Part shown: positions 7,422-52,407 of the stretch, in pieces
Layout: each line of letters opens with the position of its first letter
Numbering within the stretch: the stretch's first letter is position 1
IMG/VR virus record: IMGVR_UViG_3300008886_000002
Span: 1-62,873 of that record
Origin: a virus
DNA length: 62,873 nucleotides
Direction: 5' to 3' (one strand)
Notes under the pieces: model-generated
Told to the model about the DNA's origin: nothing
The model's database searches: none
What the model saw: the letters and a program-made list of their open reading frames with translations, nothing else
Made by a program: the position numbers and the translations under genes

Positions 7422-7439
7422 CTGAAACAATAATTCTCG

Positions 7440-7468
7440 AAGGCCCTCACCAATGGTGGGGGCCTTTT
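7440..7468 (+). terminator. Rho-independent terminator (copy A of a repeated terminator-SD module)
   Basis: 12-bp stem aaggccctcacc/ggtgggggcctt with a 3-nt loop and a T-tract. Followed by gcatggaaggacg and GTG 7484. Confidence 0.7.
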
Positions 7469-7483
7469 GCATGGAAGGACGTC

Positions 7484-10214: not shown

Positions 10215-12733
10215 CGTTGCCTAAGTGGGGTTTCGCGCAGGTCGATCAGCAGTGGTACAACACGCCCGATTTGTTGGCCGATGCGGAGCGCATGTACTCC
10301 GAGGTGAAGCCGTTGGCGCCGAAGTATTGGCGTATCGGTGCGGCGTGGGCGTTGATCGCGAAGCAACCCGACCCCGGCACCCTCATCGCCGGCACACCAC
10401 CCAGTTCGACGGGTCGTGACTGGACGACCTTGGATACGGCGTTGAATGAGGCCCTGTTGTTGGGGTCTGAGGTGGTGTTGATCCTTGGTGTCGCCAAACC
10501 GTATTGGGGTGGGGTGCGGATCGGGCCGTTCTCCTGGGGTGGGGTGTCCCCGTCGGCGGCGGATTTTGGGGTGTGGTGCGCGGAAGTCGTCCGACGGTAC
10601 AAGCCGGGTGGTCCCGGTATTCGCACCGACGGACGGTACGCGACGAACGGTCAGCTGAACCGTGGTGTTCGGATCTTCGAGATTTGGAATGAGGAGAACG
10701 ACCAGAACCACGACGGTGGGCAGATCAACGCGAAGGACTACACCGACCGCCTGGTCGCCGCGTATAACAGCATCAAAGCTGTCCCGGATCTGACGGGTAC
10801 CCCCACACCGGGGGTGAGCCCAGGTGTGGGGCAGTCGATGGTCATCTTCGGCGGCACCTACCATGTGCAGCGCATCGGGTCGTGGCTCGGATACGGCATC
10901 GCGTCCCTCCCCGAAATCGACTACTTGACGCAGTGCTATTCGTATGGGGCGCAGGGCAAGTTCGACGCGATGGCGGTCCACGTCTACCCGCATTTGGATA
11001 CTACTGGGTACAACGGTTCGGATGTGGGTCCGGTTCCGACGATGAACCTGGACAACATGCGCCAGTTGGTGGAGATCCGCCAGCTGATGGTGGATCAGGG
11101 TGATGGTGCGAAGAAGATTTGGGTCACTGAGGCGGGGTTCCCATGCTCGAATGTGACTGAGGCGCAGCAAAGCTCGTATTGGCAGCAGTTGTGGGGTTTG
11201 TTCGCGGCGTTGTCGTATGTCGAGGTGGTGTTGTTCTACTGCGCTCGCGATGGTGGCACGGACATGAAGAACGTGGAGTCGACGTGGGGGGCGATGCGTT
11301 ACGACTTCACTCACAAACCGGTGTGGGATTGGTTGGCGACGCTGTCGCCGGGGTTGAATGCTGGGTTCACATCGGAGGGCACGCTGTCGGCGTCGGTGAC
11401 CATTGGTGGCGCGAAGCCGGCGTTCACTGGTTCGGGGACGTTGGTGGCGAAGGCGTTGCAGGCCGTCACCCTGTCCCTGACGGGTTCTGGTGTGTTGTCG
11501 GTGACGGCGGAGAAGTTCGGGGAGAAGGCACCCGTCTTCACGGGGTCTGGAACGGTGTCGGCGACGGTTTCAGTGAAGATTCCGGTTGCTGCGCAACTGT
11601 CGGGTGAGGGTGTTGTGTCGGTGACGGTGTCGCAGACCGCGACCGCCGCCTTCACCGGTGACGGAACCCTGTCCGCGCAGGCCGGCGAGTCCGCGCCCCA
11701 ATTCACTGGTGAGGGCACGTTTACCGCAGCGGTGCAGCAGCCGGTCGTATATGACTCGCAGGGCACCTACACCAGCCAGTCCGGTGGCTCGAACAACAAG
11801 ACGATTAGCTGGGACCACACGATCACGTACAGCGATGCCAACACTTGGGTGTTCGTAGAAGTGGTGTACGGCCGCCCGAACGGTGTCAGTACCGGTGCGT
11901 CCACGGTCACCTATGGCGGTGTCACGATGACCTCGAAAGCTGCCGTTGACCAGGCTTTACCCGGTGGAAGCAGCGGGTCTCGCGGTGTTCGTGTCTTTGC
12001 ATTGCGGAACCCACCGACCGGGCCGCAAACCGTCTCGTACTACCAGCCTGGTGTGTCGAGCTTGAGCGGTAACTCGGTAGCCTTTCAAAACGCTGGCAGC
12101 GTTTCGTCAGGGATTACCGGCGCCAATAACAGCGGCACTACGGCAACGAGAATCCTCACGGGCGCTACGTCGGCGGGAAGCCGAATATCTGGTGTCTCGG
12201 CTGGCGCCCAAGCTGTGGCCAGTATCAGCGGTGTATCACGCGGGACTGTCGCCATTCAAGATGCCCCAGGTGAAGCGGATGGGTCAACTGACCTGGCGTG
12301 GTATCAGGGCAACGTTGGACAGTGGGTCACCGCGGGTGTAGTGCTCACTGCTGTAGCTCCACTGCCCTCTGTTGGTGCGAGTTTGGCCGGTTCGGGAACT
12401 CTGACCGCCACGGTGATCGCCAACCCTGTGGTTGCCCCCACCTTCACGGGTGCGGGCACCCTCACTGCCGCCACAGTGCCATCCCTGCCGGTATCCGCCG
12501 CTTTCACCGGCGATGGTGTGTTGACGGCCCTCCTTCAAGGCGGAGCGCTGTTCTCCTCCGTCGGCACCCTGTCAGCAGTTGTTTCGGCCATCCTCCGCGC
12601 CAATGCCACCCACAGCGGCACAGGCACTCTCACGGTCGTAGCAGCGCAAGCAGTCACCGCCAACTTCACCGGCACCGGCGCGGTCACCGCCGCCACCGGC
12701 TTCCCCTACACCTTCCCGATTACCCTGGCCTAA
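10211..12733 (+). CDS. Minor tail protein with N-terminal clan GH-A glycoside hydrolase domain and FTGxGTLSA repeat tracts
   Basis: TTGA overlap at the start. Contains FEIWNEEN (acid/base NE motif) and KIWVTEAGF (nucleophile TE motif). Two tracts of degenerate about 15-aa repeats. Confidence 0.8.
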   Translation: MTLPKWGFAQVDQQWYNTPDLLADAERMYSEVKPLAPKYWRIGAAWALIAKQPDPGTLIAGTPPSSTGRDWTTLDTALNEALLLGSEVVLILGVAKPYWGGVRIGPFSWGGVSPSAADFGVWCAEVVRRYKPGGPGIRTDGRYATNGQLNRGVRIFEIWNEENDQNHDGGQINAKDYTDRLVAAYNSIKAVPDLTGTPTPGVSPGVGQSMVIFGGTYHVQRIGSWLGYGIASLPEIDYLTQCYSYGAQGKFDAMAVHVYPHLDTTGYNGSDVGPVPTMNLDNMRQLVEIRQLMVDQGDGAKKIWVTEAGFPCSNVTEAQQSSYWQQLWGLFAALSYVEVVLFYCARDGGTDMKNVESTWGAMRYDFTHKPVWDWLATLSPGLNAGFTSEGTLSASVTIGGAKPAFTGSGTLVAKALQAVTLSLTGSGVLSVTAEKFGEKAPVFTGSGTVSATVSVKIPVAAQLSGEGVVSVTVSQTATAAFTGDGTLSAQAGESAPQFTGEGTFTAAVQQPVVYDSQGTYTSQSGGSNNKTISWDHTITYSDANTWVFVEVVYGRPNGVSTGASTVTYGGVTMTSKAAVDQALPGGSSGSRGVRVFALRNPPTGPQTVSYYQPGVSSLSGNSVAFQNAGSVSSGITGANNSGTTATRILTGATSAGSRISGVSAGAQAVASISGVSRGTVAIQDAPGEADGSTDLAWYQGNVGQWVTAGVVLTAVAPLPSVGASLAGSGTLTATVIANPVVAPTFTGAGTLTAATVPSLPVSAAFTGDGVLTALLQGGALFSSVGTLSAVVSAILRANATHSGTGTLTVVAAQAVTANFTGTGAVTAATGFPYTFPITLA
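11350..11740 (+). repeat. Degenerate tandem coding repeats (xFTGxGTLSAxV), first tract; second tract at 12376..12700
   Basis: AGFTSEGTLSA / AFTGSGTLVA / SLTGSGVLSV / VFTGSGTVSA / QLSGEGVVSV / AFTGDGTLSA / QFTGEGTFTA read in the translation. Confidence 0.8.
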
Positions 12734-16001: not shown

Positions 16002-16023
16002 CTGACCCAACGAACCGCACTCG

Positions 16024-16050
16024 AAGGCCCTCACCACTGGTGGGGGCCTT
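16024..16050 (+). terminator. Stem-loop (copy B of the repeated terminator-SD module)
   Basis: 16021..16065 matches 7437..7481 at 43 of 45 nt. Same 12-bp stem, but a weaker T-tract (ccttctg). Confidence 0.6.
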
Positions 16051-16068
16051 CTGCATGGAAGGACGACG

Positions 16069-27784: not shown

Positions 27785-27949
27785 TGGTTCATCTTCTCCT
27801 CGGCTACCGACGCCGACTCCATGGTTGGCCCGTCGTCGTGGCTGTTTGACACTGTCAATGCTGCCTGACGTTTTCCCAGGTCGCATCGTGTCATTTCATG
27901 TCGTCAAAACCCTCCGAATGCGGTGTAATTGCAGGTCGCATTCATTTTC

Positions 27950-27979
27950 GGCCGGGTTCGATTCCCGGCAGCTCCACCA
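27950..27979 (+). other. attP core: 3' end of a tmRNA (or tRNA-Ala)-like gene
   Basis: ggccGGGTTCGATTCCCGGCAGCTCCACCA reads as T-arm plus 3' acceptor strand with U70, A73 and CCA. No matching 5' acceptor strand lies upstream, so it is a gene fragment and not a tRNA. Confidence 0.75.
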
Positions 27980-27992
27980 ATAGTAGCAGGTC

Positions 27993-28022
27993 AAGCCCCC
28001 AAACATGGGGGCTTTTCCTTTT
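27993..28022 (+). terminator. Rho-independent terminator following the tmRNA-like fragment
   Basis: aagccccc aaacat gggggctt followed by ttcctttt. It would terminate the reconstituted host gene after integration. Confidence 0.75.
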
Positions 28023-28065
28023 GTCAAACGCTTGTCAAAGCGGGTTTTGGGGTAGGGTCATTTTT

Positions 28066-28758
28066 GTGGCCCACCCGATCACCTTCTCTGACGTGCTGAA
28101 AGAGCCAGTTCAGGCCCGTTTCCGCAGTAACGTCCACCTCAGTGAATGGGGCTGCCTCGAGTGGCGTGGCGCTGCACCCGGCAGATACGGAAGCTGTCCG
28201 GTCAACGGCCGAAACGTCCCCGCCCACCGAGTGGCCTGGGTAATGCGACACGGTTGCGACATCCCCGACGATCTGGTCATCGATCACCTCTGCTGCAACA
28301 AGCGGTGCGTGAACGCCGACCACCTCGAGGCCGTCAGCGACGCTGAAAATGTCCGGCGGGTTCATCGTCCGCCGCGGGGGTGGAAGCCAGTGCCGGCGCC
28401 CATTCTGACGGCGATGGAGTATCGAGGTCGACGGTGGTGCGACGTGCAGTGGATCACCGCGCAGAACGGCAAAGTTGAGAAGCACATCAAAATGTTCGAC
28501 GATCCCGAACACGCAGCGGCTTTTGCGGCGCACCTGAGCAAGACCAAGCCGGGGTCTACCGTCGTCGAGGAATGTCCCCGCGATATCCGCGACCGGCTCC
28601 TTCGTGCCTACAACGACATCGGAGTCAGCGGCTGGTTACGAGAACCCCACCGCGATCTCGGCGGGGAGCGGCCGATTGACCTCATCCGCACGGGGCGTGT
28701 CGCCGAAGTACGTGCTGTTACCGAATGGCTGCTGTCGGTCAACCTCGGGGGTTCGTAG
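28066..28758 (+). CDS. HNH endonuclease fused to an AP2-like DNA-binding segment and an MbcA/ParS-type (DUF2384-like) C-terminal domain
   Basis: CLEWRG...AHRVAWV...VIDHLCCNKRCVNADHLE (HNH), YRGRRWCDVQWITAQNGKVEKHIKMFDDPEHAAAFAAH (AP2-like), and WLREPHRDLGGERPIDLIRTG. GTG 28066 chosen because the upstream part of the track ORF reads through attP and the terminator. Confidence 0.75.
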   Translation: MAHPITFSDVLKEPVQARFRSNVHLSEWGCLEWRGAAPGRYGSCPVNGRNVPAHRVAWVMRHGCDIPDDLVIDHLCCNKRCVNADHLEAVSDAENVRRVHRPPRGWKPVPAPILTAMEYRGRRWCDVQWITAQNGKVEKHIKMFDDPEHAAAFAAHLSKTKPGSTVVEECPRDIRDRLLRAYNDIGVSGWLREPHRDLGGERPIDLIRTGRVAEVRAVTEWLLSVNLGGS

Positions 28759-29876
28759 TGGCGTCGATACGAGCGAGGCAACGAGCGGACGGAACCACTG
28801 CCTACGCGGTGCTCTACAAGCTCGGAACAACCCAGACGGCGGCCACCTTCGACACGGAGGAGGCCGCCGTCGAGTTTCGTGACGCCGTCAACTCCATCGG
28901 CGCCGAACGCGCCATGCGCGGCTGGGGCATCGGCACCACCGCCCGCGCGCAACGCCCTAAAGGCCCGACGGTGGAGGAGTGGATACGTACCTACATCGAC
29001 TCCCGCACGGGCGTCACAAAGGCCACGCTGTTCGACTACAACGCCTACCTGAAGCACGACATCGCCCCTGAGCTGGGGAAGATTCCGTTGGTCGCCTTGA
29101 CCGCGGCGGACTGCCAGCAGTGGGTTCAGGTGATGGCGGCGAAGAAGCTCTCCGGGAAGGAGAGCACGTTGTCGGGGAAGACCCTCGCCAACCGGCATGG
29201 GTTTCTGTCTGCGGCGCTCAACGCCGCGGTGCGTGCGGAGATGATCCCGTCCAACCCGACCATCGGCACCCGTCTACCGCGCACCGAGAAGCAGGAGATG
29301 TGCTTCCTCACCCCCGACGAGTTCGACCTCCTGAAGCAGGGGTTCCAGGAACGGTGGTGGCCGTTCCTGTCGTTCATGGTCGTGGCCGGCACCCGGTTCG
29401 GTGAGACCACCGCCCTGAAGCCGTCGGACGTGAACAGGGCGGCGAACACCGTGTACGTCGGGCGGGCGTGGAAGCGCACCTACGACGCGAAGCGCTACGA
29501 GATTGGTGTCCCGAAGACCCGTCGCAGCATTCGGACGATCAGCGTTCCCCGCAAGGTGCTCGACCAATTGGACTATTCCCATGAGTGGTTGTTCGTGAAC
29601 ACCGCGAACAACCCGATTCGTGCGTCGGAGTGGCGGAACAACGTGTGGTACCCGTCGGTGGCGAAGGCGAAGGCTGCGGGTTTGACGAAGTCACCCCGGA
29701 TTCACGACCTGAGGCACACGGCGGCTTCGTGGATGGTTCAGCAGGGGAGGCCGCTGCCGGTGGTGCAGGCTCACCTCGGCCACGAATCGATCAACACCAC
29801 AATTTCGCTTTATACCCATTTGGACAGGGCGAACGCCGACGAAGCCGCCGAAGGGCTGGGGGAGTGGCTGCGCTAG
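28758..29876 (+). CDS. int: Tyrosine integrase
   Basis: TAGTG coupling at the start. HDLRHTAASWMV...AHLGHESINTTISLYTHL (R-H-R-Y catalytic region). Confidence 0.9.
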   Translation: MASIRARQRADGTTAYAVLYKLGTTQTAATFDTEEAAVEFRDAVNSIGAERAMRGWGIGTTARAQRPKGPTVEEWIRTYIDSRTGVTKATLFDYNAYLKHDIAPELGKIPLVALTAADCQQWVQVMAAKKLSGKESTLSGKTLANRHGFLSAALNAAVRAEMIPSNPTIGTRLPRTEKQEMCFLTPDEFDLLKQGFQERWWPFLSFMVVAGTRFGETTALKPSDVNRAANTVYVGRAWKRTYDAKRYEIGVPKTRRSIRTISVPRKVLDQLDYSHEWLFVNTANNPIRASEWRNNVWYPSVAKAKAAGLTKSPRIHDLRHTAASWMVQQGRPLPVVQAHLGHESINTTISLYTHLDRANADEAAEGLGEWLR

Positions 29877-29924: not shown

Positions 29925-30119
29925 TCATTCCCTGAGCCACCGTTGGATGGTGTTGGTTGAGCGGCCGGTGAGTTCTGCGATGTCCGCGATTCCTCCGCCG
30001 GCGTTTTTCGCTGCGCGTACCGCTTCGATGAGCTTTCGTCGACTGCGGTCGTATTGCTTTGCCGCGGTTTGGAGTTGGCGCCGTTCGGGCTGTGGGGTCA
30101 ACTTGTGGGGTCGCGGCAT
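29925..30119 (-). CDS. Small HTH DNA-binding protein (64 aa)
   Basis: IADIAELTGRSTNTIQRWL helix-turn-helix. ATG lies 6 nt downstream of a TATGAT -10 (leaderless). Confidence 0.6.
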   Translation of the reverse strand: MPRPHKLTPQPERRQLQTAAKQYDRSRRKLIEAVRAAKNAGGGIADIAELTGRSTNTIQRWLRE

Positions 30120-30125
30120 TTCGTC

Positions 30126-30189
30126 ATCATAATCACCACGTAATACTGCCCGGTTGTTGCCCCTAAATCGCCACGAAACGGTGTATGAT
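30126..30189. promoter_or_regulatory. Divergent promoter pair, each TATGAT-N6-ATG (leaderless)
   Basis: Plus-strand TATGAT at 30184-30189, then 6 nt, then ATG 30196. Minus-strand TATGAT is the complement of 30126-30131, then 6 nt, then ATG at 30119. Confidence 0.55.
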
Positions 30190-30195
30190 TTAGGC

Positions 30196-30414
30196 ATGGG
30201 TGCAGCTAATCCGCAGACGCGGTTGAACGTGAACATCAACGTGAGAACGAAAGCGGCGTTGGAGTGTTACGCCGTCGACAATGGCATCAGCGTCACCGAA
30301 GCCGTGCGCCGGTTGGTGGGGATGGGTGCGTTCATCGCCGGGGCTCTCGCAGATGGAAAGTCTGTCGAGCTGAAGAGGGGACGCGACCGTGAAACCGTCA
30401 CTTTCGCGTTCTGA
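30196..30414 (+). CDS. Ribbon-helix-helix (CopG/Arc-like) DNA-binding protein
   Basis: RLNVNINVRTKAALECYAVDNGISVTEAVRRLV fits a beta-strand plus two helices. Confidence 0.65.
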   Translation: MGAANPQTRLNVNINVRTKAALECYAVDNGISVTEAVRRLVGMGAFIAGALADGKSVELKRGRDRETVTFAF

Positions 30415-31494: not shown

Positions 31495-31610
31495 ATGCTC
31501 TAGAAACAGCTAGACCCCCTTATCCACGGGTGTGGGGGGGTCTGCGGTGATGCCAGTACCACGGATCAGGCGGGCGGTAACCCAATGACCACCCCGGGGA
31601 GCAGGACGCG

Positions 31611-31787
31611 ATGACCGATCACATCGACTGGGAATTACGGCGCGACATGGCGGAAGCCCAATTCTGGGCCATCCGGGAGGAATGCAAGGGCCGTCCGGTC
31701 AAGTCGTTGCGGATGACGCCGCGCGCTGCGATTGCGCTCCGGGACATGGTCGTGGCGGGTTTCCATGCAGCAGGGAGAAAGCCGTGA
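31611..31787 (+). CDS. Hypothetical protein (58 aa)
   Basis: Read directly. Preceded by two coupled mini-ORFs (31550..31588 and 31585..31614). GTGA overlap downstream. Confidence 0.55.
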   Translation: MTDHIDWELRRDMAEAQFWAIREECKGRPVKSLRMTPRAAIALRDMVVAGFHAAGRKP

Positions 31788-32101
31788 ACACCTCGCGGCA
31801 GGTCGCACGTCAGATTGAACTGTTCCTCGAGGACGGTGCCCGCGAACGGCTCACCGTTGCACTCGCCCTTCTTGACGAAATGGGCGCCGAGGCTGACGGT
31901 AACCCCATGACCACCACGCCGCAGTACTGCACGTGCCCCTGCCCTCTTTGCATTGGGAACGAGCACTCGCGGTGCTACTGCGAGGGCACCGACGACGACA
32001 TGCCGCAGTGCCCACATTGCGAGCAGCGTTACGACCTCACCGGCGGCTGCGACGGCGACAAGCCTGAATGCCACGCCATTGCCGCCTTGGTAACCCAATG
32101 A
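31784..32101 (+). CDS. Cys-rich protein (105 aa)
   Basis: CTCPCPLCIGNEHSRCYCEG...CPHCEQ...GGCDGDKPECH. Ends VTQ-stop within the junction motif. Confidence 0.65.
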   Translation: MNTSRQVARQIELFLEDGARERLTVALALLDEMGAEADGNPMTTTPQYCTCPCPLCIGNEHSRCYCEGTDDDMPQCPHCEQRYDLTGGCDGDKPECHAIAALVTQ

Positions 32102-32370
32102 CCAACGAGGGGGAACTAGAGATGGAACAGCGTTACGGCAGGCCGACTGACGGCATTCTGCCCGAGGCCGACCCCTCCGGGTATCTGCCGGGGTCTACAC
32201 CGTTATACCCGCCGATAGCTGCCGTTCACCGGCTGGACGACCACCGGGCATTCGACGCCGGTACGCCCACCCGCTGCTATCAGTGCGGCACTGACACAGG
32301 CGTGGTGAAGCACGTCGGTGAGGGTGGCTTCGTGTGGGGATGCTTGGCATGCGGGCACCCGGAGGACTGA
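32098..32370 (+). CDS. Hypothetical zinc-ribbon protein (90 aa)
   Basis: Starts at the junction-motif ATG. Contains CYQCG...CLACG. Confidence 0.65.
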   Translation: MTNEGELEMEQRYGRPTDGILPEADPSGYLPGSTPLYPPIAAVHRLDDHRAFDAGTPTRCYQCGTDTGVVKHVGEGGFVWGCLACGHPED

Positions 32371-32501
32371 TGGAGATCGACCACGACGCGTCTGAGGATT
32401 GCGTTTGTGGGCCGCGCTGCGAGCCCGTCGAACGCGCGGACGGTTCCATCGGGTGGGTGTACGTCCACCACAGCTTGGACGGGAGGGAAGCGAATGAGTG
32501 A
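32370..32501 (+). CDS. Hypothetical protein (43 aa)
   Basis: TGATG coupling. Read directly. Confidence 0.45.
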   Translation: MEIDHDASEDCVCGPRCEPVERADGSIGWVYVHHSLDGREANE

Positions 32502-32679
32502 GCTACCGATGACGAAAGACCAGTTAATCGACCTCCTCTACGAACATCAGGAGGATGCTCTGACCAATTACGACAACGATGGGCGGGAGGAGTGTCGCTG
32601 CGGGCGTCAGGGCGAACAGGGGTGGCGGCAGCATTTCGCTGACGTACTCCACGCCGCCGCCGGTGGGGTAAGCCGATGA
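32494..32679 (+). CDS. Hypothetical protein (61 aa)
   Basis: 8-nt overlap with the upstream gene. Ends in a variant junction motif. Confidence 0.5.
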   Translation: MSELPMTKDQLIDLLYEHQEDALTNYDNDGREECRCGRQGEQGWRQHFADVLHAAAGGVSR

Positions 32680-32828
32680 CCACCGATCTGAACACCTTGG
32701 GGTTTGAGAGCTGCGAGCACGTCCAGGCGGCGTGGCTTGCTCACTGCGACCGCAACGACGGGCCGGCACCCTATGAACTGGTGAAGGCAACCAGCATCTG
32801 TGTGGACCAGATGGGGGCAACCCAATGA
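32676..32828 (+). CDS. Hypothetical protein (50 aa)
   Basis: Starts at the variant junction ATG and ends ATQ-stop in the next junction. Confidence 0.5.
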   Translation: MTTDLNTLGFESCEHVQAAWLAHCDRNDGPAPYELVKATSICVDQMGATQ

Positions 32829-33028
32829 CCACCCGCAGGGAGTACGTCGTGGCCTACATTGCCCCGAGTGGTGCCATCTGCCCGATCATCACGAAGAACA
32901 CGCCAACTGTGCTACGTGAGTACGCCTTTAAGGACGCCGAAGCGGTTCGTTCTGATGACGACCTCACGGAGGTCTTCGTTGCCTATCGGGACATCCCCCA
33001 GTGGCAACGAGATTTTGGGGCGGGGTAA
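32825..33028 (+). CDS. Hypothetical protein (67 aa)
   Basis: Track ORF. Starts at a junction ATG and stops at the TAA of the next junction. Confidence 0.6.
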   Translation: MTTRREYVVAYIAPSGAICPIITKNTPTVLREYAFKDAEAVRSDDDLTEVFVAYRDIPQWQRDFGAG

Positions 33029-33032
33029 CCCA

Positions 33033-33239
33033 ATGACCAACCCGACTGAAACTGCCGCGGCGGCCATCCGCGACCACTACCCGGTGTTCGATGAGCGTGG
33101 GCACATCAATGGCACTGTCCCTGGCCGCGGGTCTTGGCATTGCTGGTGCGACCGCGTAGTTGACACCACCGAGGATGAGGTTGTCTCACATGTCGCTGCG
33201 GTAGTGGTCGCAGCGCTGGCGGGTGGGGTAACCCCATGA
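33033..33239 (+). CDS. Hypothetical protein (68 aa)
   Basis: Starts at the junction ATG, internal to track ORF 32859. Confidence 0.55.
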   Translation: MTNPTETAAAAIRDHYPVFDERGHINGTVPGRGSWHCWCDRVVDTTEDEVVSHVAAVVVAALAGGVTP

Positions 33240-33487
33240 CCACGGAGCCGTTCGACTGCCAGTTCTGTTTCGATGACGGTGATTGCGGCATGGCGGCGAT
33301 GCGCATGGGCTGGTGCGGCGGACTGACGCGCCTCGTTGCGGCGGTGCATTCGACGGGTGACGAAGAGTTCTTCTGCTGGTGTGGAGAACGTTTGGCTTTT
33401 CTGCCGCGCATGAACGCGTGGACATGCTCAACGCACGGGTTGGCCGACTACGTCAACGACGCCGACGGTAAGCGGGTAACCCAATGA
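33236..33487 (+). CDS. Cys-rich protein (83 aa)
   Basis: Contains CQFCFDDGDCG...CWCG...C. Junction motifs at both ends. Confidence 0.6.
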   Translation: MTTEPFDCQFCFDDGDCGMAAMRMGWCGGLTRLVAAVHSTGDEEFFCWCGERLAFLPRMNAWTCSTHGLADYVNDADGKRVTQ

Positions 33488-33615
33488 CCCCGGAGGAGCG
33501 GACGAACCAGCGTTACCGTGACGCCATCACCTACGCCCAATCCACCTGCACCACCCATGACCACGAACCACCCGTGTCCAATTACCGCTGCTGCACCGAC
33601 GAACAGCGCGACTGA
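33484..33615 (+). CDS. Hypothetical protein (43 aa)
   Basis: Starts at the last junction ATG. Read directly. Confidence 0.45.
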   Translation: MTPEERTNQRYRDAITYAQSTCTTHDHEPPVSNYRCCTDEQRD

Positions 33616-34011
33616 CCCGTCAGCGGAATAGGGGTAGTAGTGCCCCACGGCGCGTGTTTTAGTCGCCTGCTGGCACCCACATTTGCGGATTCCGTGGCAA
33701 CCACACCATCCCTCGGCCGAACCCGACAGCAACTCTTCAGGCTGCCCAAACCGCCACTTCCAATTGACTTTCCGGTAAACCGTAACGTTTCGCCCACCGG
33801 CAACGATGCGATTGCACGCTAACAAACTTCCGCAAGTGTTGATTTGTCAGAGACGGTCCGTAAGGTCGAACGCAAGCCCGAAACAGCCAACGGACAGTGA
33901 ACATTCAGGGGGTCGACACCAGTGCTCAGCGACGCGCAGCCACCAGACCACGAACAACTTCAACATCATCTGGCGGACCTGCTTGGCCTCCACCCGATGC
34001 AGGACTGGTCG

Positions 34012-34506
34012 TCAGCGTTGTTGATGGGGGTTATCGGTGTCGTCGAGGCCTCCATCGTCGCCCATGGACTTGATGGTTTCGTCCGTCAGGTCGCGAAGCC
34101 GGTCTCCCCCGCTCAGCTGCGGATTGTTTAGGTTCTTCTGGGCTTGACCCGCTTGGCCCGATGTTCCCTGTTGCGACGCTGCTGCCAAGGCATCTCGTAA
34201 TCCCTTCATCCGTTGTTGTATCTCGCCGATTAGTTCGTTGTCGCCGAAGGCGGTCACAGGCCGCCTGACTTCAGTCATTTGTGTGTCTTTGAGCTGAAGG
34301 AATCCTGCCGCGAGGAACGCCTCGATGACGGGGGCGCCGAGGGTCGCGACGAAGCGTCTGACGTCGTCGGCCTTGGCTTCTTGGCCGCCGCGCCACTTCG
34401 ACATGATGGCCCGGTCCAGGCCGGCGTCGAGCGCTACCTTCGTCGGTTTCTTGTCGCGCGCAGCAAGCTCGTTGTCGAGCCAATCTACGAGTCGTCCATT
34501 TGGCAT
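34012..34506 (-). CDS. Immunity repressor (HTH)
   Basis: Divergent from the Cro-like gene. KPTKVALDAGLDRAIMSKWRGGQ helix-turn-helix. ATG 34506 chosen so that the palindromic operators stay intergenic. Confidence 0.65.
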   Translation of the reverse strand: MPNGRLVDWLDNELAARDKKPTKVALDAGLDRAIMSKWRGGQEAKADDVRRFVATLGAPVIEAFLAAGFLQLKDTQMTEVRRPVTAFGDNELIGEIQQRMKGLRDALAAASQQGTSGQAGQAQKNLNNPQLSGGDRLRDLTDETIKSMGDDGGLDDTDNPHQQR

Positions 34507-34543
34507 AGGCGCAGCGTAACTAGATGGTTGACGCAACTCCACC

Positions 34544-34561
34544 GGTTGCGCCGTTGCAACC
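34544..34561. promoter_or_regulatory. Operator palindrome GGTTGC-N6-GCAACC (copy 1)
   Basis: ggttgc gccgtt gcaacc, a perfect inverted repeat. Confidence 0.6.
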
Positions 34562-34662
34562 ACGGTTGCTCAGAATTACGTCAGTGTCGTTCTGCACCTC
34601 GCGCGCCTAATCGGTAGGCGAAAGCCGCTAGCGCCTCTACCTAAAGTTGCTGAAAGATAACC

Positions 34663-34680
34663 GGTTGCCATGACGCAACC
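34663..34680. promoter_or_regulatory. Operator palindrome GGTTGC-N6-GCAACC (copy 2)
   Basis: ggttgc catgac gcaacc, a perfect inverted repeat. Confidence 0.6.
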
Positions 34681-34699
34681 AGGGGTGTACGGTCAGACG

Positions 34700-34717
34700 T
34701 GTTGCGAATCAGCAACC
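34700..34717. promoter_or_regulatory. Operator palindrome tGTTGC-N6-GCAACC (copy 3)
   Basis: tgttgc gaatca gcaacc, 11 of 12 symmetric, 29 nt upstream of the Cro-like ATG. Confidence 0.55.
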
Positions 34718-34745
34718 AGATGACAATCAGCAACGGAGGCCGACC

Positions 34746-34988
34746 ATGACCCGCGGATTCGCGATCAAGATGGGCCGCGTCAAGCGCGAGATGAAGAAGC
34801 GCAACATCCCCGACTACGCCGCGCTCTCCCGCGACATCGGCGTCAACAAAAGCACCACCTGGCGAGTGATGAACGGCCACGCCCGTCCCGGGCCGGACTT
34901 TGTCAACGCCCTGCTGCGCGCGTGGGACATGGAGTTCCACGACCTGTTCGACGACCCGCGCAAGACGCGACCCGCCAAAGCGGCCTAA
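34746..34988 (+). CDS. Cro-like HTH regulator
   Basis: ggagg SD. YAALSRDIGVNKSTTWRVMNG helix-turn-helix. Divergent from the repressor. Confidence 0.7.
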   Translation: MTRGFAIKMGRVKREMKKRNIPDYAALSRDIGVNKSTTWRVMNGHARPGPDFVNALLRAWDMEFHDLFDDPRKTRPAKAA

Positions 34989-36680: not shown

Positions 36681-37411
36681 CCCCGTCGCGTTTCCTGTCC
36701 GCTGCTGAGTTTGCTTGTAAGACGGTGCGTTCAATCGTGCGGGGTTCTGGTGCCCCAGTGCTACCCCCCCCGAATCATCCCGGCGCGGAGGCTCTTACGG
36801 ATAAAGAGGCTGAGGATGAGGTTTTGGCTCCTTGGTGGGTTCAGGCTGCGGTGGATGCGAAGGCTCGGGCGGAAACGCCGTTGTCCGCCACCTTCGACGA
36901 CGAACCGCCGGCCAAGTGCACCCATTCGTACGGCGACCTCGTCATGGACCCCGACACCGAGACAGGCACATGCAAGTGTGGGGTCAAGTTCCTGCTCAAA
37001 GTGTTTGGTCATGTAGCGGACGCGCCCTCGCCTTTCGCCGCTGCAGTTTCTGATGAAGTGCCGCGATGCACTAACTGCGATAAACGTCTCGGCGAGATAG
37101 CCGCATCCAGCGAGATCTTCCCCGGTAGTTTCTGCTCTGCCCGCTGCGTGTCGGTCGCCGAAGTGCGACAAGCGTTGAAGGATTCGCGCACCCAGTCTCC
37201 TGCACATTGCGCTCCTGCTACCGGCGCCCGTGCGGTTGAGGAAACGCCGGGAGGGTTGCCCCCCAACCCTCCCGGCGTGCAACCCCGATGCAAGTTCTGC
37301 CAGCAACAGATTTCACAGCTCGAGGACGGGCTGTGGTTCCACCTGGGGCGCAACCTGCTCCGTTGCGTCGACATCCCCGACTTCCCACCGACGTACGCGC
37401 AACCGGAGTGA
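36677..37411 (+). CDS. Hypothetical Cys-containing protein
   Basis: 244-aa track ORF, ATGA-coupled. Confidence 0.65.
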   Translation: MTPSRFLSAAEFACKTVRSIVRGSGAPVLPPPNHPGAEALTDKEAEDEVLAPWWVQAAVDAKARAETPLSATFDDEPPAKCTHSYGDLVMDPDTETGTCKCGVKFLLKVFGHVADAPSPFAAAVSDEVPRCTNCDKRLGEIAASSEIFPGSFCSARCVSVAEVRQALKDSRTQSPAHCAPATGARAVEETPGGLPPNPPGVQPRCKFCQQQISQLEDGLWFHLGRNLLRCVDIPDFPPTYAQPE

Positions 37412-37473
37412 AAAAGCGGCGCGGCCGGGGCAAGCCGACCGCGCCAGTAACACCAACAGAAAGGAAAGTTCCG

Positions 37474-37983
37474 TTGAGTACTGAGACAACTGTAGAGCAT
37501 GAAACATGGCGTCCTGTTGTAGGCCACGAATCCTCGTATGAGGTATCCGACCTCGGCCGCGTGCGATCTGTTGACCGGACCATCACCGATAGTCGGGGCA
37601 GATCTAGAAGGTTTTTGGGCCGAATTCTGAAGCCAGCAACAGACAGGGGTGGGTACCTATACGTCATTCTAAGTCCGGGAAAAAATCATGCCCCCGTTCA
37701 CAGACTAGTCCTAGGGGCTTTCGTGGGTGCTCGACCACCTGGGCTAGTTTGCCGGCACGGGAATGGAGATTGCCGGGACAACCGCATAATTAACTTGAGC
37801 TACAGCACTCATTCGGTGAACATCCGCGACAAGCGCGCGCATGGAACCGACCACAACATCAACAAAACGCACTGCCCGCAGGGCCATCCATACTTCGGCG
37901 AAAACCTTTACATCAGCCCCGCGCGACGTCGTTCGTGTAGGACGTGCACTCGGGCCAATAAGGCTCAGCAGGTGGCGTCATGA
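37474..37983 (+). CDS. HNH homing endonuclease (NUMOD4 + HNH_3 type)
   Basis: TTG start after the aaaggaaa SD. Contains WRPVVGHESSYEVSDLGRVRS, VHRLVLGAFVG...CRHGNGDCRDNRIINL and HCPQGH...CRTC. Confidence 0.85.
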   Translation: MSTETTVEHETWRPVVGHESSYEVSDLGRVRSVDRTITDSRGRSRRFLGRILKPATDRGGYLYVILSPGKNHAPVHRLVLGAFVGARPPGLVCRHGNGDCRDNRIINLSYSTHSVNIRDKRAHGTDHNINKTHCPQGHPYFGENLYISPARRRSCRTCTRANKAQQVAS

Positions 37984-40510: not shown

Positions 40511-40676
40511 CCAGTGCCTCGACCATGCCCTGTTGGGTGGGCGTTGCGAACTCACCGTTGGTCATGGCGGCGCGCATCAAAAAACGTATGAGGGGGGTTA
40601 TGTGGCCCGGTGGGATGACGCGTCGAAGGCCCGGATGGTGGCCTACGTCAACAAGTTCGAAGCTGGCGGCAACTAA
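40500..40676 (+). CDS. Hypothetical protein (58 aa)
   Basis: 11-nt overlap upstream and TAATG coupling to the ATPase gene. Preferred over Arg-rich track ORF 40507. Confidence 0.45.
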   Translation: MNDDQCLDHALLGGRCELTVGHGGAHQKTYEGGYVARWDDASKARMVAYVNKFEAGGN

Positions 40677-41686
40677 TGGCGCTGAAGACCAGGACACCGA
40701 CCGGCGTCCCGAACTGGCCGATGATCCTCATTGAAGGCCCCGACTCGGTGGGCAAGTCCTACCAAGCAGCCCAATTCACCGGCTCAGGCCGCACAGGGCA
40801 GGCGTACTGGATGGACCTGGGGGAAGGTGCCGCAGACGAGTACATCAACGTCCCCGGGGCCGATTACCTGATTCTTGACCATGATGGTTCGTGGCAGGAC
40901 ATCTGCGACCAGGTTCGGGAAGCAACGCAAGCCGCTGCAGGGTCGGATAAGCCGGCGGTGCTGGTCGTGGATTCCATGTCGAACTTGTGGGACATGCTCA
41001 AAGCGTGGTTGAACACCCGAGCGAGGTCGTCGCGTAACGGGAAGAAGCTGTTGGCTGCGGATCCGGACGCGGAAATCAAGCCCGCACCCAACTTGTGGAA
41101 CGACGCCAACGATCGTCACCATCAATTCCTGAACCTGTTGTCCCGCTTCCCTGGAATCGTGATTCTCACGGCGAAGGGTAAGGAAACGATGGCCGTGGAC
41201 GATGCCGGCAGACCCATCCCCAACGCCAAGGACTACTCGGTGGAGGCGAACAAGAACCTCCCGTTCCGGGTCAACGCCCACGTCCGACTGTCTAGGGACT
41301 CAGCCCCCATGGTGGTGTCGTTCCGGTCCGCGACGAACGGGATGAGACCCGGTGTCGACCCACCACAGAAGTACCCGGACTTCACGTTGGAGCATTTGGT
41401 GTTCGACGTGATGGGGTTGAAGACAGCACAAACCCGCGACGTCACACCGTTGGTCAGCGACGAGAAAGCCCAAGCCGACCAAGCCAGGGCACTTCTGGGC
41501 GCTTTCATCCGTGAGCACGGCATCAACTACAAGCAGTTGTCGGAGCGGTTCTTCCGGGAGACGGATTCCTCGTTGGAGGACACGACGGATGCTCAGGCTG
41601 TGCGGAACCTACTCGATGATTTGCGAACGGATTACGCGCAGCCGTCGGAGCCTGTAGAGGCAGTGCAAGGGGCACTGAATGTCTGA
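40676..41686 (+). CDS. RecA-fold ATPase (AAA_24/Sak4-like recombination or replication protein)
   Basis: Walker A ILIEGPDSVGKS and Walker B-like AVLVVDSMSNLW. 336 aa. Confidence 0.7.
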   Translation: MALKTRTPTGVPNWPMILIEGPDSVGKSYQAAQFTGSGRTGQAYWMDLGEGAADEYINVPGADYLILDHDGSWQDICDQVREATQAAAGSDKPAVLVVDSMSNLWDMLKAWLNTRARSSRNGKKLLAADPDAEIKPAPNLWNDANDRHHQFLNLLSRFPGIVILTAKGKETMAVDDAGRPIPNAKDYSVEANKNLPFRVNAHVRLSRDSAPMVVSFRSATNGMRPGVDPPQKYPDFTLEHLVFDVMGLKTAQTRDVTPLVSDEKAQADQARALLGAFIREHGINYKQLSERFFRETDSSLEDTTDAQAVRNLLDDLRTDYAQPSEPVEAVQGALNV

Positions 41687-42966: not shown

Positions 42967-43124
42967 GCGACGAACTGGACGCAATCTCGGCGATGGAGAT
43001 TGACATCGAAATCGCAGACGTCGGAGAGATCTTGCAACGACATGGGGTATCACCCACCGCTGAAATGGCTTTCGAGTTGTGGCACTGGATGGAGATGCTC
43101 AGACGCCGCAGAGGTGATGCCTGA
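42963..43124 (+). CDS. Hypothetical protein (53 aa)
   Basis: ATGA overlap upstream and TGATG downstream. Read directly. Confidence 0.5.
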   Translation: MSDELDAISAMEIDIEIADVGEILQRHGVSPTAEMAFELWHWMEMLRRRRGDA

Positions 43125-43861
43125 TGGCACGTACGCCCAACTTCCCTCTGAGTCGCTGGCGTGATCGGAATTTCACGAAGCTGAGCCGTCAAGAGCAGTG
43201 GATGTGCTTCTTGCTCATGTACGGCACTCACCACACCAACAATCTTGGCGTGATACCCGTGACTCCTACGCGGTGGTCGAACATGGTCGCCAATGTGCCA
43301 CCAGTGGAGTGTTTCGAACTGGTTCGCCGGCTTGGTTTGACCGATTGGGTGGTGCTGGACGAATCTATGGACGAGCTGTTCCTGCCCAGCTATATGCGGG
43401 ACTGTCATATTGGCAAGCAGCCAAACCTGTTGCGGAGTGCAATCGCTGACGTCGACAACGTTTGGTCACCCTCAATACGCCTGGCCATTGCCGACGAGTT
43501 CTCTCACATAGACCGCAAGGATGCTCAATCAGCGGCCCATGCCATCCGCGCTGGCACCAAGTTGGCGGTGGGCAGTAGGCGAACCTCACGTCCATCCGTG
43601 GCCTCTGCACTGCGAACGTCTGTCTACCAACGCGATAACTGGAAGTGCTCCTACTGCGACCTAGCGTTTGAACCGGCACCCATTGGCCGTGCGCCAGAGG
43701 ACGAAATCCTCGGCATCTGGCTTGAACTGGACCACATTAGACCCTATTCGCTGGGCGGCGAAGACACCTTCGACAACTTTCGGTCTGCGTGCTCGACATG
43801 CAACCGCCGACGCGGAGTGGACGATGCCGACCTCTGGGCGCAGAGGATTGAGGCGCACTGA
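43124..43861 (+). CDS. Protein with C-terminal HNH nuclease domain
   Basis: VYQRDNWKCSYCDL...LELDHIRPYSLGGEDTFDNFRSACSTCNRRRG. Confidence 0.8.
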   Translation: MARTPNFPLSRWRDRNFTKLSRQEQWMCFLLMYGTHHTNNLGVIPVTPTRWSNMVANVPPVECFELVRRLGLTDWVVLDESMDELFLPSYMRDCHIGKQPNLLRSAIADVDNVWSPSIRLAIADEFSHIDRKDAQSAAHAIRAGTKLAVGSRRTSRPSVASALRTSVYQRDNWKCSYCDLAFEPAPIGRAPEDEILGIWLELDHIRPYSLGGEDTFDNFRSACSTCNRRRGVDDADLWAQRIEAH

Positions 43862-46932: not shown

Positions 46933-47393
46933 CCGACCATCAGGGGCGCACCTTGCCGCCATTCCCCACAGACGACTTCACGCTCACCCAGCTCGACCAC
47001 GCCCTAGACGCGAGCATCGACTTTGACGACGACGGTAAACGCATTGTCGTGGGAGCAGACTTCACGTTCTCCCAATTCCTCGACTTCATGTCCGGGTACG
47101 ACCCCGAGCGCGCCACCCTGATCGGGCACACCGACGTCATCCCCGGCACTGACGTACCCCACGACCATTCGATACCCATCTACGAGTCGTGGGACGAGCA
47201 CTACACCGAGCATTCCGTCATACGGGCGTTGCTGTCTGAGGTTGTGTCTTTGCGGTCGACCTTGGCACGGGTACGGGAACTGCACCGCGAGCATGAGCAT
47301 CTCGCGATGTGTGTCGACTGTGAGGGCTCTTGGCCGTGCCCAACCATCGCTGTTTTGGGTTCTGTTGCACCTACTGAGGATGGAGCAGCATGA
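46929..47393 (+). CDS. Hypothetical protein (154 aa)
   Basis: ATGA overlap. C-terminal CVDCEGSWPCPT motif is shared with 44986..45396. Confidence 0.65.
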   Translation: MTDHQGRTLPPFPTDDFTLTQLDHALDASIDFDDDGKRIVVGADFTFSQFLDFMSGYDPERATLIGHTDVIPGTDVPHDHSIPIYESWDEHYTEHSVIRALLSEVVSLRSTLARVRELHREHEHLAMCVDCEGSWPCPTIAVLGSVAPTEDGAA

Positions 47394-47914
47394 GCGAGGT
47401 GCCGATTGAGCAAGAAGTTTGGCTGCCTGTCCCGGGTTGGGAATTGGCCTACGAGGTGAGTTCCTACGGTCGGATCAGATCACTAGACAGAGCAGAATCT
47501 ATAGGAATGGCGGTTAGGTCAAGACGGGGGTGCATCCTGAAAACGCGTTGCGGCAACAGCGGATACCAACAGGTTCACCTTCACAAGATGGGCAAACGGA
47601 AAGCAGCATCTATCCACCGTTTGGTATGCGAAGCGTTCCACGGACCTTGCCCTGCAGGTATGGAAGCTCGCCACCTCAACGATGTGAAGCATGACAACAG
47701 GGCTGAAAACTTAGCGTGGGGTACAAAGTCGCAGAACTCGCACGATGCTCGAAGTAATAACCATCACCCACAGGCGCGTAAGACCCACTGCAAGTGGGGT
47801 CATGAGTTCACCGAGCAGAACACGAAAATTGGTCGCAACGGGTGGCGGTGGTGCCGACAATGCCACCGAGACGATGGCGCCCGACGGTACAAACTGTCAG
47901 GAAGTGCTGCATGA
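47390..47914 (+). CDS. HNH homing endonuclease (NUMOD4 + HNH_3 type)
   Basis: WLPVPGWELAYEVSSYGRIRS, IHRLVCEAFHG...ARHLNDVKHDNRAENL and HCKWGH...CRQC. Confidence 0.85.
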   Translation: MSEVPIEQEVWLPVPGWELAYEVSSYGRIRSLDRAESIGMAVRSRRGCILKTRCGNSGYQQVHLHKMGKRKAASIHRLVCEAFHGPCPAGMEARHLNDVKHDNRAENLAWGTKSQNSHDARSNNHHPQARKTHCKWGHEFTEQNTKIGRNGWRWCRQCHRDDGARRYKLSGSAA

Positions 47915-50346: not shown

Positions 50347-51192
50347 GTGACGGTGGCCCCGAGCACCTACTACGCGGCCAAGTCGCGCGCTCCGTCGCAG
50401 CGGGCCTGCCGTGACGCTGTCCTGGGTCCGGCCCTGGTGGCGCTCTGGGAGGACAACTACCGGGTCTACGGGGTTCGCAAGCTGTGGAAGACGGCACGTC
50501 GGGCCGGCCACGACGTCGGCCGCGACCAGGTGGCCCGGCTGATGCGGGCGGCCGGGATCGAAGGCGCACGGCGCGGCAAACGGGTGCGAACCACCAAACC
50601 CGACCACAGCGCCGAACGGCACCCGGATTTGGTCAATCGGAAGTTCACCGCGAGCGCCCCGAACCAATTGTGGGTTACGGATCTGACGTTCGTGCCGACC
50701 TGGGCCGGGGTGGCGTATGTCTGCTTCATCGTCGACGCCTACTCCCGGATGATCGTTGGCTGGCGCGTCGCATCCCACATGCGGACCACCATGGTCCTTG
50801 ATGCGTTGGAGATGGCGCGCTGGTCACGCGGAAACACGTTGCCGGGCTTGACATGTCACTCGGATGCCGGATCGCAATTCACATCTATCCGCTACGGCGA
50901 ACGACTCGCCGAGATCGGCGCAGCCCCGTCGATCGGTTCGATCGGGGACAGCTATGATAACGCCCTCGCGGAGACGGTGAACGGCTACTACAAGGCCGAG
51001 CTGATCTACGGGCCGGCCCGCACCGGCCCGTGGAAGACCGTCGAAGACGTCGAGTTGGCGACCCTGGGATGGGTGTACTGGCACAACACCGCCCGCCTTC
51101 ACGGCTACCTCAGCGACGTCCCTCCGACCGAGTTCGAAGCCGCATTCTACGATGCACAGCGGACCGACCAAACCCTGGTCGAAATCCAATAG
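50347..51192 (+). CDS. IS3-family transposase OrfB (DDE catalytic core; made as an OrfAB -1 frameshift fusion)
   Basis: WVTDLTF, HSDAGSQFTS and DNALAETVNGYYKAE (D, D, E plus K). The -1 frame is open from 50215 and overlaps the orfA end at 50275. Confidence 0.9.
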   Translation: MTVAPSTYYAAKSRAPSQRACRDAVLGPALVALWEDNYRVYGVRKLWKTARRAGHDVGRDQVARLMRAAGIEGARRGKRVRTTKPDHSAERHPDLVNRKFTASAPNQLWVTDLTFVPTWAGVAYVCFIVDAYSRMIVGWRVASHMRTTMVLDALEMARWSRGNTLPGLTCHSDAGSQFTSIRYGERLAEIGAAPSIGSIGDSYDNALAETVNGYYKAELIYGPARTGPWKTVEDVELATLGWVYWHNTARLHGYLSDVPPTEFEAAFYDAQRTDQTLVEIQ

Positions 51193-51708: not shown

Positions 51709-52407
51709 ATGGCTCAGCGTACAGTCATTTGCGAATGGTGTGGACGTGAGTTCACCGCAGTCAGAGCGCGATTCTGCTCCCGCAACTGCCACAACCACCA
51801 CCAGCGCGGCCCCATACCAGAGCGCTCATGCCTCTGGTGCAACGGGCCCATGGATGGCAAGCGGCGCGGCGCGCTGTACTGCACACAGCAACACAAAAAG
51901 AACGCATCTGGGGCAAGGTTCCGCGACCGGAACCCCGGCTACTACAAGCCCTACGGTCAAAGTGAGCGCATGCGCAAATTGCTTGACGCCAACCGCGAAA
52001 ACCGCCGCGCATACGCCAGGCAATACCGTCTCGATCACCTTGAACAGACAACAGCCCGATCAAAGCAATGGCGCGAGGCGAACCGCACGTACTTCCAAGT
52101 ACACCAGAGAAACCGAGTGGCATGGAAACACAACAACCCCGGCAGTGTCGGCGTCAGCGAGCGGGACTGGACGCGACTGTGCCGGCGCTACGACCACCGA
52201 TGCGCTTACTGCGGACAGAAACCTGAAGCTGTCTTGCAGATGGACCACGTGGTTCCCTTGAGCAAGGGCGGACGGCATGCCATCGGCAACGTCCTTCCCG
52301 CATGCAGGGCATGCAACCTAACTAAGAATGCAGCTCTCCTCATCCGCTGGAAGTACCGCAAGATGTGCGGCCTGTACGACGACATGCCCGGAGGTATCAG
52401 TGCCTGA
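51709..52407 (+). CDS. HNH endonuclease (paralogue of 59005..59625)
   Basis: CAYCGQKPEAVLQMDHVVPLSKGGRHAIGNVLPACRACNLTKN. The basic Arg-rich N-terminal half resembles 59005. Confidence 0.85.
   Translation: MAQRTVICEWCGREFTAVRARFCSRNCHNHHQRGPIPERSCLWCNGPMDGKRRGALYCTQQHKKNASGARFRDRNPGYYKPYGQSERMRKLLDANRENRRAYARQYRLDHLEQTTARSKQWREANRTYFQVHQRNRVAWKHNNPGSVGVSERDWTRLCRRYDHRCAYCGQKPEAVLQMDHVVPLSKGGRHAIGNVLPACRACNLTKNAALLIRWKYRKMCGLYDDMPGGISA

Follow-up and report, generated by a model that had tools for sequence, protein, structure and literature searches.

The subject of this report is a run of tiny genes in the virus record IMGVR_UViG_3300008886_000002 of IMG/VR, whose full 62,873 nucleotides are here called the window, and in particular a short sequence, the 15-mer GGTAACCCAATGACC (the junction motif), that recurs at the borders of these genes. 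The array occupies positions 31550 to 33615 of the + strand. It is preceded by a G+C-rich hairpin (AGACCCCC...GGGGGGUCU, 31509..31545, + strand), seen in the centroid fold between the stop codon of the upstream gene (31494) and the array, which may represent a terminator or attenuator lacking a U-tract; a scan for terminators with a T tail did not detect it. Two very short open reading frames (ORFs) of 12 and 9 codons follow, as a preliminary description of this DNA had reported. The first (31550..31588, + strand; product MPVPRIRRAVTQ) stops at the TGA of the first motif copy and is of a length at which G+C content in third codon positions (GC3) is uninformative. The second (31585..31614, + strand; product MTTPGSRTR) starts at the ATG of that copy, and its TGA overlaps the ATG of the first full gene. 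It may be a cassette remnant, given a weak likeness to the 5' end of the last gene of the array that holds only with indels and is no more than suggestive.

Gene prediction made independently on a public contig of identical sequence yields ten genes, designated g1 to g10, of 58, 105, 90, 43, 61, 50, 67, 68, 83 and 43 amino acids (aa), respectively. In the called frames all ten show a GC3 of 0.67-0.80 and a G+C content in second positions (GC2) of 0.40-0.54, and four of them match PHROG families, all without known function; from this pattern and these matches we conclude that the genes are real. Searches of the cassettes returned no significant match in Pfam, nothing in PADLOC and no match in Rfam. 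All genes lie on the + strand: g1 (31611..31787), with an ordinary GGGGAG ribosome-binding site (RBS) and without the motif; g2 (31784..32101), made up of a segment g2a (residues 1-41) and a Cys-rich segment g2b that begins at the ATG at 31907; g3 (32098..32370), with two CxxC pairs; g4 (32370..32501), which matches PHROG 2864, has an ordinary GGAGG RBS and adjoins g5 (32494..32679) at a junction without the motif; g6 (32676..32828); g7 (32825..33028); g8 (33033..33239), whose core is homologous to gp70 of phage Taptic and gp43 of phage Toto; the Cys-rich g9 (33236..33487); and g10 (33484..33615), the last cassette. CxxC pairs, earlier ascribed to many of the products, occur in g2b, g3 and g9, and others have CxC or CC. 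A terminator-like hairpin with a T-rich tail (33640..33663, + strand), convergent with a repressor gene, ends the array.

Eight copies of the junction motif punctuate these genes, all on the + strand and within 1.9 kb (31576-33489), and none is found elsewhere in the window. The four exact and three variant copies of the preliminary description lie where it placed them, but its count of seven overlooked one at 31898. Exact copies are copy 1 (31576..31590, whose ATG at 31585 opens the second mini-ORF), copy 3 (32089..32103, at the g2/g3 junction, where VTQ and a stop are followed by MTN), copy 6 (33024..33038, g7/g8) and copy 8 (33475..33489, g9/g10). Those with one or two changes are copy 2 (GGTAACCCCATGACC, 31898..31912, one mismatch), copy 4 (GGTAAGCCGATGACC, 32667..32681, two mismatches, g5/g6), copy 5 (GGCAACCCAATGACC, 32816..32830, one mismatch, g6/g7) and copy 7 (again GGTAACCCCATGACC, 33227..33241, one mismatch, g8/g9). 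The seven copies first listed stand exactly at gene boundaries, as had been claimed for them; copy 2 lies in frame inside the 105-aa ORF of g2, where it is read as G N P M T.

An ORF begins at the ATG of every copy, which bears out the proposal that the motif supplies the downstream start: six called genes use this ATG, and a seventh ATG starts the 9-codon mini-ORF. The motif also carries stop codons in two frames. Six upstream ORFs end at its TGA, in a 4-nt ATGA overlap, one (g7, at copy 6) ends at its TAA, leaving a 4-nt gap to the ATG, and one (g2) reads through in the only frame left open (..D G N P M T T..); all three frames relative to the motif are in use. The statement that most upstream proteins end in VTQ was too strong, since exact VTQ ends are found in three of the seven, the rest being ATQ, VSR, VTP and one end via the TAA. 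PHROG 24657 covers just residues 3-43 of g2, and in a related contig (L314, below) a motif copy is followed by a g2b homolog as a gene of its own, which argues that g2 is a fusion of two modules. At the junctions without a motif (g1/g2, g3/g4 and g4/g5) and at the start of g1, ordinary GGAG or GGAGG RBSs are present, as in the neighbouring genes.

When up to three mismatches are allowed, the window contains 10 matches to the 15-mer against 1.6 expected, and none of 100 shuffled sequences reached 10, so that the comparison with shuffled sequence called for earlier upholds the enrichment. The two matches beyond the eight copies (12317 and 45211, each with three mismatches) look like chance. A 13-nt core of the motif gave the same result, and the motif constitutes the largest direct-repeat family of the whole window. 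In an alignment of 13 copies (eight from the window and five from a relative, L055) information reaches about 2 nt past the upstream end of the 15-mer and 2-3 nt past its downstream end; as conservation does not continue beyond these flanks, the unit is best written (G)GGGTAACCCAATGACC(AC), about 17-19 nt. Farther than about 2 nt upstream there is at most 0.7 bit per position, the flanks being coding sequence of unrelated genes. Successive copies are spaced 150-580 nt apart, in coding context.

The last codons of the upstream genes before the TGA are GTA ACC CAA; GTA is the rarest Val codon of the genome (30/517, 5.8%) and CAA a minor Gln codon (26%). These rare codons, together with the unrelated flanking cassettes, argue that conservation acts at the level of the nucleotides and not of the protein. 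As the preliminary description held, the flanking coding sequence is unrelated: the cassettes have no mutual homology apart from a faint C-terminal resemblance of g5 and g8, and only g4 and g5 have homologs (h3 and h4, respectively) among the cassettes of L055. The homologs of g8 in cultured mycobacteriophages (Taptic gp70 and Toto gp43) share its core, have other N- and C-termini and a normal GGGAGG RBS, and do not carry the junction motif, from which it follows that the motif is a property of the array and not of the genes. This genome has many ATGACC starts and ATGA overlaps that do not involve the motif, and its other ATGA or GTGA junctions have unrelated upstream sequences.

In the databases scanned, the motif array was found in only two other metagenomic genomes. 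One is the IMG/VR contig 3300047472_000152 (L055), with five copies in a row, and the other a 3.2-kb contig from the same metagenome (L314), with seven. The register between motif and ATG is identical in 20 of 20 copies (8 in the window, 5 in L055 and 7 in L314), all on the coding strand, and across the three genomes the motif precedes about 15 unrelated cassettes. The g4-g5 pair is all that L055 has in common with the window, the DNA there being about 80% identical; the L055 genes to the right are unrelated, the DNA homology stopping 5 nt past motif copy 4, and no homology was found between g7 and cassette h5 of L055. The first copy in L055 (GGAGGTAACCCAATG) lies where the RBS of the operon's first gene is expected, in a divergent intergenic region with no upstream gene, and even there the fixed register holds; since this copy is no gene-gene junction, the motif is tied to starts and not to stops. 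A TATGAT hexamer resembling a -10 element lies 11 nt before it (5393-5421). A more distant contig, L316 (Logan SRR20614923), has two degenerate copies, AGTACCCAATGACG and GGTAACCAAATGACC, both in frame inside ORFs; the first, with one base lost, fuses a g10 homolog to an upstream protein. The ORFs that contain these copies encode 220 aa (2420-3082) and 117 aa (1625-1978), on the - strand.

L055 and L314 are 96-98% identical in their shared segments and differ in cassette order and content. Cassette h1 is first in L055 and sixth in L314, h2 is present only in L055, and L314 has four cassettes of its own (85, 77, 61 and 48 aa), which lie between h5 and h6; the 85-aa cassette had no match in IMG/VR, the L055 contig included. 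At the h5/h1 junction of L314 (position 819), the left side is identical to the end of h5 in L055 (34/34) and the right side to the start of h1 (40/40), with the switch falling within GGTAAC. Placed on L055, each of the four points at which L314 switches relative to it is no more than 7 nt from a motif copy, and zones of this extent make up about 13% of the L055 array; by our own arithmetic, chance placement of four such points has a probability of about 3e-4. The crossovers are clean, without filler or deletion. The sole adjacency kept in the window, L055 and L314 is g4/g5 (h3/h4), which is also the one motif-less adjacency for which comparators exist, and fusions at motif copies are seen in the window (g2) and twice in L316. 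The search of relatives for cassettes swapped, gained or lost, suggested beforehand, has in L055 and L314 found them, with breakpoints at motif copies; these rearrangements, and the g8 homologs without the motif, support the earlier view of a cassette array whose boundaries are conserved at the DNA level, as a linker for the shuffling or gain of genes.

Broader scans were made with nucleotide and protein queries. The exact 15-mer has one true relative among 53 chance matches in IMG/VR, and scans of IMG/VR with degenerate forms showed no further relative among the matches listed. An 18-mer, GGTAACCCAATGACCAMC, gave 22 single matches in GTDB genomes, which look like chance, and 27 mostly single matches in JGI metagenomes, a set evidently without the samples of the window and of L055 and L314, where absence means little. 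A 30-nt motif query of 50,697 phage records returned only single weak matches. Protein searches with g5, g8 and the neighbouring helix-turn-helix (HTH) gene yielded few clusters, with no relatives of g5 in GTDB genomes or of c85 and g2b in IMG/VR. Other phages with g4 homologs have ordinary, heterogeneous junctions, not homogenised ones, so that homogenisation is not general to the neighbourhood of g4. The exact motif sequence was not found in the searchable literature. A further contig (L315, Logan SRR28413682; 3635-4672, - strand) contains a small-gene array beside a homolog of the small HTH gene; the motif of the window is absent from it, two of its junctions read GGGG(C)AGCG ATGAG(T/C)GA, and two starts read TAGAATCAG(C/G)GG(C)ATGGC, of a leaderless-like form.

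These features lead us to favour, with somewhat better than even confidence, a portable stop/start junction that serves coupled translation and whose repetition provides a substrate for short-homology shuffling. On the messenger RNA, the motif would end the upstream tiny gene, mostly at the TGA overlapping the ATG and once at the TAA, and the next gene would be restarted with a weak Shine-Dalgarno (SD)-like GGGGU 7 nt upstream, the ATG and a favoured second codon, ACC; in this way ribosomes would read the tiny genes of the operon as a coupled chain. That the junction RNAs show no more structure than shuffled sequences speaks for their accessibility. Coupled translation by termination and reinitiation would be the simplest reading of the junction, and at ATGA overlaps the process is well documented in bacteria (PMC6728339). 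The junctions resemble known termination-reinitiation pairs (PMC6728339, PMC10666635) in that six of eight overlap by ATGA and the upstream gene contains a purine-rich stretch, but ordinary coupled pairs have no common sequence of 15-19 nt. In the DNA, the repeated 15-22 nt would act as short homologies for recombination from copy to copy, both inside one phage genome and from one related genome to another, a proposal that follows from the presence of the same sequence at almost every junction. Such recombination would move, delete, insert and at times fuse whole cassettes, and because a crossover inside the motif would keep the stop/start relation of each cassette, the recombinants would remain expressible; indels shifting the upstream frame would give fusions, as in g2 and L316. 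The clean crossovers between L055 and L314 are the outcome that recombination between copies would predict. Host RecA, or a phage protein of the AAA_24 family with weak Sak4-like similarity (40676..41686, + strand; Pfam PF13479, 5.7e-11; PHROG 124, 1.4e-6), might supply the enzyme; the latter is a candidate single-strand annealing recombinase, and phage annealases recombine short, diverged sequences (PMC5928155, PMC3945230). Selection for expression would then keep the sequence uniform. A role as a ribosome or protein recognition site, the alternative offered in the preliminary description, is probably true in part as well.

Several points weigh against a coupled, shuffling junction. The spacer TAACCCA is unexplained by pairing with ribosomal RNA (rRNA), because SD pairing is weak and uneven (duplex energies of -2.9 to -9.4 kcal/mol with an assumed actinobacterial 16S 3' tail). 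A length of 15-22 nt is short for recombination of the RecA type; selection for working junctions after random recombination could also place breakpoints at gene borders; and how the motif first reached unrelated genes is left unaccounted for. Only three genomes bear the array, two of them from one metagenome, and on a contig of 3.2 kb, as L314 is, an assembly chimera could be a source of the rearrangement, an origin made unlikely by a repeat shorter than usual assembly k-mers, by single-nucleotide differences proper to L314 and by its unique cassettes.

Other functions for the junction were considered and rejected. The junctions have no conserved RNA hairpin, their RNAs being no more structured than shuffles (z of 0 to +1.9). 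If the motif is paired over its entire length with the 3' tail of 16S rRNA, the match reaches at best 8 of 10 positions in a hand alignment, with energies that are weak, uneven and insufficient. Programmed frameshifting would require a slippery sequence, and none is present, the downstream frame being -1/+2; an identification as iterons, parS or packaging sites agrees neither with the 150-580 nt between copies nor with their position in coding sequence.

Among the alternatives, a less likely one, to which we still give appreciable weight, is that the motif is a recognition site on the mRNA for a trans-acting factor, a protein or RNA of phage or host, by which the tiny genes are switched on or off together, recombination being incidental. 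It would account well for the ATG register fixed in all 20 copies of three genomes, and for conservation of the spacer in excess of what pairing with rRNA needs. A factor of this kind has been put forward to explain start-associated sequences (SAS) in phages of clusters K and EF, the role of SAS being still untested (PMC12699233), and the run of G and run of C before the ATG of the present motif (GGG-UAA-CCC) resemble GGGAUAGGAGCCC and GGGAAAGGACCCC of those systems (PMC3203893, PMC7302621); like SAS, the motif is kept before different gene families in related genomes. On the other hand, no candidate factor was found, nor any sequence complementary to the motif, such as an antisense partner, elsewhere in the window; all copies stay within one operon, with none scattered through the rest of the non-structural arm, and a trans-acting factor alone does not explain the stops built into two frames.

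The likeness to SAS extends further. SAS have been described in cluster K mycobacteriophages (GGGATAGGAGCCC, a 13-bp consensus; PMC3203893) and in cluster EF Microbacterium phages (GGGAAAGGACCCC; PMC7302621), and both they and the motif are short, asymmetric, highly conserved and found in one orientation directly at start codons, mostly ATG, among small non-structural genes, with more conservation than an RBS needs. Under the criterion of Pope et al. (2011), SAS have at most two mismatches to GGGATAGGAGCCC; in the window, this consensus has 14 matches at up to three mismatches against 16.4 expected, none of them in the array. SAS have an AGGAG core, whereas the motif has only GG(G)GU and neighbouring genes have GGAGG. 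About half of SAS are accompanied by extended start-associated sequences (ESAS), imperfect inverted repeats of 17 bp, and the motif has no repeats of this type. The motif, unlike SAS, includes the ATG and stops in two frames, and is thus a gene-gene junction and not an intergenic RBS; its copies all lie in one 2-kb operon and show direct evidence of recombination between them. With consensus, AGGAG core and ESAS all missing, the motif is not a member of the SAS family, although it shares their defining behaviour.

Rather improbable, in our estimation, is a stronger form of the recombination hypothesis, in which the motif is the recombination site of a dedicated phage cassette platform, perhaps coevolved with a phage recombinase, through which tiny genes for host takeover or anti-defence are captured, reordered and discarded, following the logic of an integron with a universal stop/start junction in place of attC.

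The closest precedent for exchange at gene borders is the short conserved boundary sequence of modular theory (Susskind and Botstein, and Clark et al. 2001 on lambdoid phages, as cited in PMC3029335). Boundary sequences and the motif alike are short sequences shared at borders with unrelated flanks, where homology starts or stops and whole genes are reassorted. Boundary sequences are reported to be rare and usually single, most mosaic joints of actinophages having none (PMC3029335), but the motif is reiterated five to eight times in a row, doubles as a translation start/stop signal and bounds single tiny genes. The motif fits the definition of boundary sequences, exchange by homologous recombination being inferred from the clean crossovers. 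A repeated junction of another kind occurs in the cultured Mycobacterium phage Purky (cluster P, NC_051739, 41280-44890), where GAGG(A/T)GxxGTCCG GTG AGTGA, or a sequence close to it, links a series of seven or more small genes that overlap by 8 nt. Like the motif, it combines RBS, start and stop and is repeated between small genes; unlike the motif, it has an unrelated sequence with a strong GAGG RBS. We found no published description of the Purky repeat, and its occurrence suggests that reiterated junctions may be commoner than described.

Stoperators of cluster A phages such as L5 and Bxb1 are 13-bp asymmetric sites, oriented with transcription, that often lie at or overlap the stop and start codons of short gaps; their consensus is shared with the immunity operator, and tens of copies occur across the whole genome. 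It seems very unlikely to us that the motif is a comparable DNA-binding site, at which a bound regulator would block transcription of the array and which would sit at junctions since its stops bar two frames. The copies are asymmetric, numerous, of one orientation with respect to transcription and placed at stops and starts near a repressor gene, GGGTAACCC within the motif forms an interrupted 4+1+4 palindrome, and the one copy inside an ORF uses the only open frame. However, the repressor-cro and nearby intergenic regions have no motif-like sequence (6-8 mismatches of 16 at best), the copies are confined to one 2-kb operon, and a DNA site would need no exact start-codon register in every copy. 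The repressor-cro intergenic region (34564-34745) itself contains repeated AATCAGCAAC and GGTTGC/GCAACC elements, which are likely operators unrelated to the junction motif.

Each integron cassette ends in attC, an imperfectly palindromic site that is tens of bp long and forms a hairpin. A dedicated integron-like exchange with the motif as core site, performed for instance by the neighbouring tyrosine integrase, is slightly less credible still: identical direct repeats bound the cassettes, whole cassettes are gained, lost or transposed between near-identical genomes with the switches inside the repeat, and the integrase gene lies 1.7 kb upstream, but the conserved 17-19 nt are asymmetric, there is no attC-like imperfect palindrome or inverted repeat at the cassette ends (shuffled sequences fold at least as well as the junctions), the integrase is made up of ordinary phage-integrase domains and sits, as is normal, beside the immunity region, a recombination site needs no tie to a start codon, and homology-driven crossover explains all events equally well. 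Just as hard to credit is a functionless relic, a tandemly duplicated tiny gene whose interiors diverged or were replaced and whose ends were kept by chance or by ordinary selection on RBS and start, an idea for which the fast evolution of small phage genes, the faint resemblance of g5 to g8 and the frequency of motif-free ATGACC starts and ATGA overlaps speak, and against which stand an identical 15-mer in lineages whose shared genes are about 80% identical (neutral retention of about 3.5% per copy, 0.8^15), the use of rare codons and the absence of the motif from all other junctions of the genome and from the 50,697 phage records.

As for the genome that carries the array, the first 55 nt of the window (1-55) are identical to its last (62819-62873), which argues for an assembly that closes into a circle of about 62,818 bp, and hence for a complete phage genome and not a prophage with host flanks. 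It is that of a temperate siphovirus-like actinobacteriophage. Its terminase shares about 60% identity with the terminases of Mycobacterium phage Milly, Gordonia phage Lucky10 and M. abscessus prophages; among the 50,697 cultured-phage records there was no near-identity DNA match, and a distant DNA search of cultured phages matched only a 99-nt core of g8. The region is also present in four other public assemblies, three of them 100% identical and one, a 916-nt contig, with a single mismatch. Upstream of the array the order is a tyrosine integrase (28725..29876, + strand; Pfam Phage_integrase), separated from it by six genes, a small leftward HTH gene, five rightward genes and the G+C hairpin; the terminator-like hairpin after the array is followed by a convergent gene of the transcriptional repressor family (34012..34563, - strand; 183 aa; PHROG 3949, E = 2e-23), a Cro-like gene (34746-34988) and an antirepressor. 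A TATGAT hexamer lies 6 nt ahead of the ATG at 30196 (window 30178-30198), and the gene that starts there looks leaderless; this hexamer and that of L055 (5393-5421) probably mark promoters directed away from the small HTH gene, which runs leftward (29925-30119 in the window).

Elsewhere in the genome, a unit of about 49 nt occurs three times (7436-7484, 16020-16068 and 61426-61474; the first two 94% identical) and consists of a G+C hairpin (GAAGGCCC..GGGGGCCTT), T-rich sequence and GGAAGGA; these look like conserved terminator-plus-RBS units of the structural region. Three repeats with a 60-nt period (11477-11627) lie inside an 840-aa tail-region gene (10211-12733). An ORF with transposase domains (50347-51192; rve integrase core and HTH_21) appears to be an insertion sequence within the phage genome. 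At least five genes encode HNH-type endonucleases (27898-28758, about 37408-37983, 43124-43861, 47390-47914 and 51709-52407), two with HNH_3 and NUMOD4 domains and one with an Xre/MbcA/ParS C-terminal domain.

In the accepted view of actinobacteriophages, most joints arise by illegitimate recombination and conserved boundary sequences are almost never seen (PMC3029335). The array described here is a clear counter-example: a single sequence recurs at almost all of its junctions, and it is exactly at these points that related genomes have traded whole genes. Two puzzles meet in it, that of the start-associated repeats known from some actinophages, which lack an explanation, and that of the fast turnover of tiny accessory genes, in that a start-associated repeat can double as a recombination handle. 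The design of the junction, with two frames closed, the third open and a start included, could serve the building and shuffling of synthetic operons, and the array gives experimenters a direct means to study coupled translation and recombination over short homology in actinobacteria, of relevance to phage genome evolution and to actinobacterial translation.

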